From the NCBI GenBank assembly GCA_964458565.1, contig CAYWJO010000012.1:1-23278 (forward strand): a stretch of DNA of 23,278 nucleotides, in the 5' to 3' direction. Positions 7,102 through 9,594 of this stretch are shown piece after piece. Position 1 is the first letter of the stretch. Each line of letters opens with the position of its first letter. The position numbers were made by a program, and so were the translations under genes. The notes beneath the pieces were generated by a model. The model made no database searches. It was not told where the DNA came from and saw only the letters and a list, made by a program, of their open reading frames with translations. Source of the DNA: an uncultured archaeon (GTDB lineage Archaea > Asgardarchaeota > Thorarchaeia > Thorarchaeales > Thorarchaeaceae).

Positions 7102-8025
7102 CTAGACATCACCTTTCATTTGAGTCATAGCTATAAGTTTCTTCATAAACCAACGTTTGATTTTCCCAGTCTTAATGATTTTACCTTTCACTAAGTCGAT
7201 ATGCCAAGTTGTTGGAACAACTGGTACATTCTTACTCAGTCCAAATTTGTAATCCATTACTGCTGATGCTACCAACGCTGAATTGAGTCGACACCCAGCT
7301 GCGACAGCTGGAGCCTTTCCTAATTTAGATCTTTGTCGAGCTAAAGTCATATCCATTCCTGCTGGTCGAGTTGAGAGAAACATCACCCCAAAATTCTCAA
7401 CATATCGCCTGAATGTGAGGTCCCCTGGGTCATTGCTCTCAGGTGGGACGCCAAAGTATTCATCAAATGTAGGTGATTTTTCTGGATCGAATATTCCAAT
7501 AGCTGCCCCATATCCTATTGCTGGGCAACAGAAAACTGCTTGACCATTTTCTCTTGCTACATTGAAGTATTTACGTTTGGCTTCCATCGCGTAGATATCG
7601 ATCCCGTCAACAACTACGTCAGCACCTTCTAGGAACTCTTCAACATTCTCAGTTGTGACACCATTGGGATATACTTCCACAGTGGCGAGAGGATTAATCT
7701 TTTTGATTTCCTCTGCAATTACTACTGCTTTGTTTTTTCCTAAGGTTTCAGAGGTGCACCCTAACTGACGGTTCAAGTTGCTCATGCCATATTCATCAGG
7801 GTCTGCAACTCTAAAGTGCTGATAACCCATCTGAGCCAGAGTAATTGCGACGTCCGCGTTTCCTCCAACTCCTGCGATAGAAACAACCATTCGAGAGACC
7901 TCTTCCTGTTGTTCAGGAGTTAGTACACCAAGGTTTCGATCCACCATCTGATTGTAATAATCTGTGGGAATCTCCTGGTTGGGTTCCACCATTTCAAAGC
8001 TAGGTGGGATTGATTCAGTTGCCAT
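7102..8025 (-). CDS. ThiF/E1-like adenylyltransferase (non-MoeB type, no CxxC zinc motifs)
   Basis: RNLG, IAGVGG, ADPD, SNLNRQ, KNKA, INP and DVVVDGID motifs. GGAGGT RBS overlaps the GH3 stop codon. Confidence 0.9.
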   Translation of the reverse strand: MATESIPPSFEMVEPNQEIPTDYYNQMVDRNLGVLTPEQQEEVSRMVVSIAGVGGNADVAITLAQMGYQHFRVADPDEYGMSNLNRQLGCTSETLGKNKAVVIAEEIKKINPLATVEVYPNGVTTENVEEFLEGADVVVDGIDIYAMEAKRKYFNVARENGQAVFCCPAIGYGAAIGIFDPEKSPTFDEYFGVPPESNDPGDLTFRRYVENFGVMFLSTRPAGMDMTLARQRSKLGKAPAVAAGCRLNSALVASAVMDYKFGLSKNVPVVPTTWHIDLVKGKIIKTGKIKRWFMKKLIAMTQMKGDV

Positions 8026-8037
8026 TCATTTTACCTC

Positions 8038-9594
8038 CTATGCGGCTGCCTCACCAAGACCTAACACTGATGTGTCAGTGGTGAGCACAACCGGTTTTGA
8101 TTGTACATGTTTACTTTTTGCGACAGCATCGTAGTAGCTATTTTGCATCTTGATCAATTGAGTTGCTCCAAGCGCACCTGTTTCCCTCACGACCCTGAAT
8201 TCACCATTGCTTTTCTTCATAGCATCTTCATACGCATGAATGAACTCCAGTGAATCAACGTCATTCTTGAACATCGCAGCAATGACATAATTTCCTAAGC
8301 CATTCTTCACTCGTGCAACAACTGTATAATCCATTACTTGAGCTCCAGTGACTCTGCATGCTTCATCGATTGCCCGAGTAACGTGAGCATCTGAAAGCTT
8401 CTCGCCACTTAGATTTGTGACCTTACCCCTGCGACCAATATCTGTCATAGTGATAGGATCTGTACTCGTGATTGTTAGCATGTCACCTGGTCTGTAGCGA
8501 TAGTAACCACCAGAATTTGTAATCACAATCTCGTACCTGTTACCGGCCTTTATATCACTGAGTGGAATTGTTTCAGGAATCGGTTCATCAATCTCCGACT
8601 CGGGAATGAATTCGTAATAGTTCACGTGAGGGGAGATCTGCATACCTCTTCCTGGCAGGAGCTGGCCGCCATAATAACTCTCAGAACCACCATACATCTC
8701 CCAAATCTGGCTATCTGGTAACGTTTCTGAAATCCATTTTCTGTAAGGGTCCGGTGATACCCCGGTACTAAGAAGGAATCTCAGATTAGGCCATAGTTCG
8801 GATACATTGAGAACACCCGAATCATCCATTGCATCTCTAAGTCTAGCTTCATGTTTTGTACCTCGATACTCATCGAGTAGCCAAGGTCCATACTCATTCT
8901 GCATTCTTCGAACCAATGCTAACCAGAGTGGTGTGATTCCTTGAAGTCCTGTCACATTATGTTCAACGAGAAGCTTGGCATAGCATCTTATCTTGAGTTC
9001 CATATCCTCTACTTGGAAAACATCATGTCCATCTACTAATGGAAGATTCATCAAACGCTGGAAGATAGGGTTCTGAAATTTGGAATAGACTCCTGTGGCA
9101 TACCCGACTGGGATTTCTCCGATATAGTCTAGATGCGAACCTGCTCCAAATGTGATTAGTTTCCCATCAATAAGCTTCAGATTTTCCTCGTCTTGAGCCA
9201 AGTAGCCCATCCAACTCAACATTGTTCCTTTGGAAATCGCTTTAATCCCCAACTTGGTTGCTGGCAACCTTTTCTGGGTTCCTGTAGTTCCGGATGTCTG
9301 CATAAACCACACAACAGGATCTATAGTCAATATTTTTCCATTGGGATTTTTCTGTATCATCTCAAAATATGGTTTCATTTGTTGACCATCCATGAGTGGT
9401 ACAGTCTCACGAAACTTCTCTGGAGTCTTAATCGACTCAAAGCTAAACTTATTACCGTACATCGTGTCCCGATGACGATCAAGAGCAGCCATGAGTGTCT
9501 CTTCAGACATTTCAACTGGATAGTTGAGGACTCGATCAATCTCCTTCAATTTCTTTTTCGCAACCATCTTTACGAGGTGCTTCATGATCGACAT
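8038..9594 (-). CDS. GH3 family acyl-acid amido synthetase (GH3 auxin-responsive-like)
   Basis: QTSGTTGTQKRLP, YGGSE, YYEFIP, YEIVITNSGGYYRYRPGD and GRRGKVTNLSGEKL motifs. ATG 9594 (MSIMKHL) after GGAGTG preferred over 9726. Confidence 0.92.
   Translation of the reverse strand: MSIMKHLVKMVAKKKLKEIDRVLNYPVEMSEETLMAALDRHRDTMYGNKFSFESIKTPEKFRETVPLMDGQQMKPYFEMIQKNPNGKILTIDPVVWFMQTSGTTGTQKRLPATKLGIKAISKGTMLSWMGYLAQDEENLKLIDGKLITFGAGSHLDYIGEIPVGYATGVYSKFQNPIFQRLMNLPLVDGHDVFQVEDMELKIRCYAKLLVEHNVTGLQGITPLWLALVRRMQNEYGPWLLDEYRGTKHEARLRDAMDDSGVLNVSELWPNLRFLLSTGVSPDPYRKWISETLPDSQIWEMYGGSESYYGGQLLPGRGMQISPHVNYYEFIPESEIDEPIPETIPLSDIKAGNRYEIVITNSGGYYRYRPGDMLTITSTDPITMTDIGRRGKVTNLSGEKLSDAHVTRAIDEACRVTGAQVMDYTVVARVKNGLGNYVIAAMFKNDVDSLEFIHAYEDAMKKSNGEFRVVRETGALGATQLIKMQNSYYDAVAKSKHVQSKPVVLTTDTSVLGLGEAAA

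Follow-up and report, generated by a model that had tools for sequence, protein, structure and literature searches.

The stretch of DNA considered here, 23,278 nucleotides (nt) of contig CAYWJO010000012.1 (assembly GCA_964458565.1) from an uncultured archaeon of the family Thorarchaeaceae and hereafter called the window, carries on its minus strand a head-to-tail pair of genes that both encode adenylating enzymes. The upstream gene (8038 to 9594) encodes an acyl acid amido synthetase of the GH3 family, 518 amino acids (aa) long and recognized by its Pfam domains and motifs, while the downstream gene (7102 to 8025) encodes a stand-alone ThiF-like adenylyltransferase of 307 aa, which its best NCBIfam model and phylogenetic trees place, probably, in the PRK08223, or oxazolone-cyclase, group. 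As described in an earlier note on this DNA, which was made from the sequence alone, the coordinates leave a spacer of 12 nt between them (8026 to 8037), and the junction reads TAG-GAGGTAAAATGA-ATG, where the GH3 stop codon shares bases with a GGAGGT ribosome-binding site. The longest frame of the GH3 gene extends from 8038 to 9726, but because its orthologues align only from about residue 40 to 45 of that frame, the ATG at 9594, which is preceded at a few bases by GGAGTG, is likely the actual start. A 10-bp hairpin with T-runs on both strands (7066 to 7093) lies 3′ of the ThiF gene, between it and a convergent gene for a metallo-β-lactamase (MBL)-fold protein. Its presence agrees with the shared terminator that had been noted for the pair, and it is plausibly a two-way terminator, but it is not statistically special, as the region holds 2 terminator-like sites against 2.6 expected in shuffled sequence. 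No Rfam family was matched within the window.

The N, M and C domains of the GH3 protein score 100.7, 62 and 38 bits, respectively, against a cut-off of 23.6 (Pfam PF03321, PF23571 and PF23572). Its best matches in the PDB are plant GH3 enzymes (E value, 3.5e-24), and among eukaryotes GH3 enzymes are best known for conjugating plant hormones. All three nucleotide-binding motifs are present, as TSGTTGTQKR, YGGSE and GGYYRYRPGD, when checked against the set described for plant GH3 enzymes and OlsH (SSGTSxGxxK-like, YGSSE-like and GLYRYRxGD-like; PMC12493201). OlsH is also the best NCBIfam match, at 110 bits against a cut-off of 620 and over residues 300 to 534. This protein, from Singulisphaera acidiphila, is a prokaryotic GH3-like lyso-ornithine lipid synthetase that, with ATP and Mg2+, converts free fatty acid to N-acyl ornithine (PMC12493201). 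The window enzyme resembles it in being a prokaryotic GH3 with the same three nucleotide motifs and differs from it in its genetic setting, where no OlsI-type O-acyltransferase is found nearby and ThiF takes the place of partner. GH3 genes are common in this lineage: the Pfam domains were detected in 89 of 301 sampled genomes of the phylum (Asgard), and orthologues of the window gene occur in 64 of the 86 genomes of its family, representing 15 of 16 genera. A separate expansion of GH3, without ThiF, was seen in another Asgard family (f12, genus g34), in which four genomes (G022, G033, G079 and G118) hold seven Pfam GH3 matches each, several of them in tandem (e.g. G118:C43, G033:C1).

The ThiF protein scores 108.6 bits against the Pfam ThiF domain, which is over the cut-off, and its top NCBIfam model is PRK08223 (176 bits), followed by PRK14851 (152) and PRK14852 (118). 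Lower scores were obtained with the ThiS-type ThiF model (81), the Rv1355c family (78), MoeB (up to 61), TcdA (52) and UbaA (51), the last three having cut-offs of 449, 304 and 450 bits. The hidden Markov model search bears out the affinity to PRK08223 and OxzB-type proteins that had first been suggested by motifs (176 bits for PRK08223 versus 52 and 51 for TcdA and UbaA). The motifs in question, RNLG..TPEQQ, GID and P.GYG....FDP...TFDEYF, are all present, and within the clade the RN.G and F.P....F...FG segments are conserved. Nine residues are invariant in 23 sequences of this clade, namely G52, G54 and G55 of the Gly-rich loop, D75, N83, R86, Q87, K99 and D140. The last of these, the presumed Mg-binding Asp, lies in a VVVDGID motif and may well be equivalent to Asp217 of TrzS, whose loss abolishes the cyclase activity of that enzyme (PMC12856293). 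Ten further residues (G33, F71, G89, G122, F131, F191, P221, P239, L247 and P271 in the numbering of the window protein) occur in both the Asgard and the sister clades but in none of MoeB, ThiF and TcdA, and five of the ten are also found in a TrzS-family protein.

The AlphaFold2 model of the ThiF protein (mean predicted local distance difference test score, 88.8) matches AclA, PaaA, ThiF, MoeB and MccB at template modeling (TM) scores of about 0.6, so that the predicted fold is a generic one. AclA of Tenacibaculum discolor (PDB 9EGB and 9EGC) is the best match among solved structures both by sequence (E value, 1e-12) and by fold (Foldseek E value, 1e-15; TM scores, 0.65 and 0.79), although identity in the structural alignment is low (18%) and the sequence match is limited to residues 27 to 182. 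The second-best sequence match in the PDB (E value, 4e-11) is E. coli TcdA, the tRNA t6A cyclodehydratase, which shares the ThiF fold and carries out an ATP-dependent activation followed by cyclization of an N-carbamoyl amino acid moiety. TcdA differs in acting on tRNA, in the low score of the window protein against its model, and in falling outside the PRK08223-type group on both of the trees described below.

When a profile of the Asgard ThiF clade was searched against 1.84 billion representative proteins, the clade itself scored at least 228 bits and was followed by a plateau at 160 to 200 bits that contained many proteins of 640 to 700 aa. Ten of these long relatives were sampled, and they include fusions of ThiF with a nitroreductase domain, of FeeM (N-acyl amino acid synthase) with ThiF, and of all three. 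Among sampled relatives that exceed the PRK08223 cut-off, the long ones have C-terminal halves that match flavin mononucleotide oxidoreductases of the Acg family, the "FDO" of the oxazolone literature, and the layout of the ThiF-FDO and FeeM-ThiF fusions is, judged by domain content, that of the oxazolone synthetases. An Omnitrophota contig has a gene for a 371-aa nitroreductase-fold protein immediately 5′ of a 34%-identical stand-alone ThiF gene. The archetype of PRK14852, a 989-aa protein encoded on plasmid pDV of Nitratidesulfovibrio (Desulfovibrio) vulgaris Hildenborough (37254 to 40223; L079), consists of an N-terminal extension, ThiF and an Acg-type oxidase domain, lies among PEP-CTERM/exosortase genes and is annotated solely as a ThiF family adenylyltransferase.

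Two trees, a quick one of 94 sequences and a careful one of 37 built under LG+C20, gave the same picture. In the careful tree the Asgard clade (support, 99/99) is nested within a PRK08223-type group of 32 rows (92/93), outside of which lie E. coli TcdA and a Rhodococcus protein of the Rv1355c (TrzS) family, both on long branches, and an outgroup (100/99) composed of E. coli MoeB, E. coli ThiF and a UbaA-like protein from the window's own genome. A grouping of the window ThiF with TcdA or UbaA, the outcome that the earlier note had set against its own proposal, was not seen on the tree; forcing the Asgard clade together with the MoeB, ThiF and UbaA-like sequences was rejected by the approximately unbiased test (p-AU, 0.036), and a sister position to TcdA was disfavored without being rejected (p-AU, 0.10).

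Of the 301 genomes sampled across the phylum, the ThiF clade was found in 12, and all of these belong to the window's family (12 of its 77 sampled genomes, in seven genera). The linkage to GH3 seen in the window holds throughout this set: by coordinates, 13 of 14 ThiF copies lie directly 3′ of a GH3 gene on the same strand, and the upstream DNA of the fourteenth is cut off by the end of a 3.6-kb contig, such that GH3 stands immediately 5′ of every ThiF copy for which upstream DNA exists. The gaps between the two genes in relatives, counted from the starts of the longest frames, are mostly between -23 and +12 nt. The GH3 genes that are linked to ThiF are dispersed over the GH3 tree, such that at least 6 changes of state are required, and the ThiF tree mirrors the GH3 tree. 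The simplest history would be an ancestral GH3-ThiF pair followed by repeated loss of ThiF. Given this repeated loss, and the presence of GH3 in 64 of 86 but of ThiF in 12 of 77 genomes of the family, the ancestral and widespread GH3 would seem to be self-sufficient, with ThiF as an optional added step. A decaying ThiF copy, with an internal TGA and a frame of only 158 aa, lies 3′ of GH3 in L074 (G179:C4:44495-45214).

Two metagenome contigs from deeper within the ThiF clade provide independent cases. In one (L092), a very divergent GH3 gene, a gene for a B12-radical SAM protein and a gene for a 43%-identical ThiF lie on one strand, an independent GH3...ThiF arrangement with a non-orthologous GH3. 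The full series there (L092:49-5543, one strand) is PrpD-like, divergent GH3, B12-binding radical SAM and ThiF; B12-radical SAM genes also occur near ThiF relatives in L013, L014 and L015. In the other contig (L090), the neighbor of ThiF is a receiver domain joined to a region with a weak resemblance to FeeM/GNAT.

We propose that GH3 and ThiF constitute a two-gene operon in which two ATP would be spent on two successive activations of carboxylates. Based on its family membership and intact motifs, GH3 would adenylate a free carboxylic acid and couple it to an amino acid at the amino group, yielding an N-acyl amino acid with a free α-carboxylate. Based on the biochemistry of its nearest characterized relatives, the ThiF-like enzyme would then adenylate this α-carboxylate, and the amide oxygen would attack the adenylate to form a 5(4H)-oxazolone ring with a net change of -18 Da, unless another nucleophile captured the adenylate. 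GH3 would in this way stand in for an acyl-CoA-dependent acyltransferase of the OxzA, TyzA or FeeM type. Because the O2-dependent flavin oxidase is absent, the product should stay saturated and reactive, as an azlactone or a derivative of one, and no O2 would be needed. That ThiF acts on the product of GH3, adenylating its carboxylate and cyclizing or otherwise activating it, we consider on balance probable; we are less confident that the product is specifically an oxazolone.

The comparison that underlies this proposal is with the oxazolone lipids, a recent discovery, reported to date from bacteria, that involves an acyl-CoA-dependent acyltransferase, a ThiF cyclase and an O2-dependent oxidase. 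OxzB, TyzB and TrzS carry out the ATP-dependent cyclization of N-acyl amino acids, and in TrzS the ring is closed before it is desaturated, the saturated ring being released when the desaturation by the oxidase is blocked. As in OxzA/OxzB of Pseudoalteromonas rubra, TyzA/TyzB/TyzC, and TrzA/TrzS of Mycobacterium tuberculosis, a ThiF-like enzyme in the window is genetically coupled to a predicted maker of N-acyl amino acids. On the trees it falls in the same PRK08223-type group as the ThiF-FDO and FeeM-ThiF fusions, keeps the adenylation residues, including D140, and is, like TyzB, a stand-alone protein of about 300 aa. In contrast to the bacterial pathways, the amide maker here would be an ATP-dependent GH3 ligase that uses the free acid rather than an acyl-CoA acyltransferase, and GH3 is analogous but not homologous to the OxzA, TyzA and FeeM synthases. 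The host is an Asgard archaeon, the ThiF protein forms part of a clade of its own, and no flavin-dependent oxidase is fused to it, adjacent to it or found in the window's genome. A Pfam scan of the window revealed none of the Acg/FDO nitroreductase fold, and the nitroreductase-fold frames elsewhere in the genome are generic and at most 271 aa long, versus about 340 to 370 aa for FDOs. A stable unsaturated oxazolone is unlikely for lack of such a partner, and the pair probably represents a counterpart of the bacterial pathway in archaea that works without the oxidase.

Several observations weigh against this proposal. The score of the window ThiF against PRK08223 falls short of the curated equivalog cut-off of 266 bits, whereas members of the sister lineages score 319 to 390 bits and exceed it; the sister clade was itself recognized as oxazolone-related by architecture and NCBIfam models, and the TrzS-family reference forms a long branch that falls outside the PRK08223-type group. 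Forcing the Asgard clade together with TcdA costs 7.9 log-likelihood units and, at the p-AU given above, is not rejected. A ThiF-FDO query against five ThiF-bearing genomes matched by its ThiF part only and revealed no FDO-type oxidase, and a saturated oxazolone hydrolyzes back, which could make cyclization alone futile unless the ring were trapped. Most GH3 orthologues lack ThiF, and adjacency alone is weak evidence because synteny extends over the whole neighborhood throughout the family. A search for GH3-ThiF fusion proteins, itself weak, found none. The pathway as originally conceived, with GH3 in place of the acyltransferase in an N-acyl amino acid or oxazolone-type route, is nonetheless supported as a candidate: the computationally testable points (family, tree and linkage) turned out as the earlier note had predicted, with the missing oxidase and the many GH3 genes without ThiF as caveats. 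A literature search for GH3, ThiF and archaea returned nothing relevant and no paper that links GH3 with ThiF.

If the proposal is correct, it would extend oxazolone-type chemistry to the archaea and to an O2-independent form, with the ThiF cyclase module joined, in Asgard archaea and without an oxidase, to a different amide-forming enzyme. It would also provide a first clue to the function of GH3 in Asgard genomes, where such genes are common. With only two genes, the GH3-ThiF pair is simple enough for direct expression and assay.

The same substrate might instead meet a non-oxazolone fate, in which a side chain or an external nucleophile attacks the ThiF-made adenylate of the GH3 product. 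The outcome would then be a lactam, a lactone or another amide or ester, for instance an N-acyl dipeptide, an acylated lipid or an acylated protein. The lack of a flavin oxidase that could stabilize an oxazolone is in keeping with such an outcome, as is the variety of ways in which ThiF-like enzymes resolve their adenylates, with MccB, PaaA and TcdA among the structural matches, and the separate position of the Asgard clade under the PRK08223 cut-off. However, oxazolone ring closure is the only documented chemistry of the surrounding group, the release of the saturated intermediate by TrzS when desaturation is blocked indicates that an oxidase is unnecessary for ring closure, and no conserved extra transferase gene lies beside the pair. 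We regard a non-oxazolone product as unlikely.

Alternatively, ThiF could act as MccB, PaaA or E1 enzymes do and activate the C terminus of a small protein or a ribosomally made peptide, with GH3 being a neighbor only or an enzyme that acts on the same peptide. The top structural matches, which include PaaA, MccB and AclA "in complex with substrate", are suggestive of such a role. MccB and PaaA hold their peptides by an extra N-terminal domain, however, and the window ThiF is a 307-aa core whose AlphaFold2 model has no such domain. As the earlier note had observed, the protein also lacks the CxxC motifs of MoeB and UbaA (its four cysteines are C91, C166, C167 and C245), and no gene for a ubiquitin-like or small archaeal modifier protein is nearby, there being no open reading frame (ORF) of 40 to 150 aa that ends in Gly-Gly anywhere in the window. 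The genome carries a separate, canonical MoeB/UbaA-type gene elsewhere (G000:C6). The gap 5′ of GH3 (9727 to 10276 in the window) has counterparts of about 500 to 750 bp in relatives where it could be measured, but comparison of these upstream gaps (550 to 800 bp) across loci revealed no conserved small ORF and no conserved DNA, with matches between close relatives only, and the gene for a 657-aa protein (o657) adjoins GH3 in some loci only, whether or not ThiF is present. We consider peptide activation very improbable. That the adjacency is merely inherited gene order, with ThiF serving an unrelated role such as TcdA-like tRNA modification, is slightly less probable again, since the strong synteny of the neighborhood in this family and the p-AU of 0.10 for an Asgard-plus-TcdA clade, which speak for it, are opposed by the tight or overlapping same-strand spacing with a ribosome-binding site in the GH3 stop, the failure to find any ThiF copy away from GH3, the independent arrangement with a non-orthologous GH3 in L092, the score of 52 bits against the TcdA cut-off of 304, and the restriction of ThiF to 12 of 77 related genomes, which is not expected of a housekeeping tRNA enzyme.

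Returning to the GH3-ThiF pathway, its biological use is open to a further proposal, in which Thorarchaeota would make a saturated azlactone, i.e. an activated N-acyl amino acid, under anoxic conditions and employ it either as a signal that diffuses or as a donor of acyl groups to lipids or proteins, with a neighboring 7-helix/CPBP protein as receptor or processing partner. This reading is decidedly speculative, and we think it quite unlikely; nothing was found in support of the small signal that had been suggested as the product. Were it true, it would represent the first case of such small-molecule acyl-amide chemistry among archaea, found in the closest lineage to eukaryotes.

The 7-helix membrane protein (5427 to 6137, plus strand) is a frequent convergent neighbor of GH3 in relatives, and its link to the pair is uncertain. 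The gene order of the family runs o250-c4-RadA-c5-c6-XPD-type helicase, on the opposite strand and leading away from GH3, then GH3 with or without ThiF, then the convergent 7-helix gene. Of 33 loci, 16 have a homologue of this gene beside GH3, alone or with ThiF. The 7-helix protein of the family showed no homology to the HisKA_7TM-like protein beside ThiF in L091. In 5 of 14 family members, the 7-helix protein is fused to or lies beside an Rce1-like (CPBP) intramembrane protease (e.g. L067:10460-11776, L069:5007-6659). In the window, it forms a two-gene module with the MBL-fold gene (5427 to 7023, plus strand), a paralogous copy of which, with 59% and 53% identity, is located at G000:C7:51635-53160.

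A reading of this neighborhood as a set of genes that make, sense and degrade a compound is not supported. The MBL gene (6112 to 7023) was rejected as the degrading partner: it travels with the 7-helix gene, is not conserved beside GH3-ThiF, and was not found between ThiF and the 7-helix gene in any other locus examined. The penicillin amidase gene (162 to 2789), likewise not conserved beside the pair, was rejected in the same role. A third gene, orf250 (10277 to 11029), had been considered part of the system since it is conserved next to GH3 and was rejected as the first gene of a divergent RadA/XPD-helicase operon in relatives, where the series is o250, c4, RadA/Rad51, c5, c6, an XPD-type DEAD_2 helicase, c9 and c13. 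In the window, orf250 (plus strand) stands alone and is followed by a convergent 551-aa gene, and a paralogue with 24% identity is found at G000:C10:49945-50577. The 657-aa protein (2987 to 4960, plus strand) has homologues that flank GH3 or lie within two genes of it at 8 of 33 loci (among them L045, L055, L060, L063, L065, L073 and L074), whether ThiF is present or not. It could be a regulator of GH3, or the association could be due to chance.

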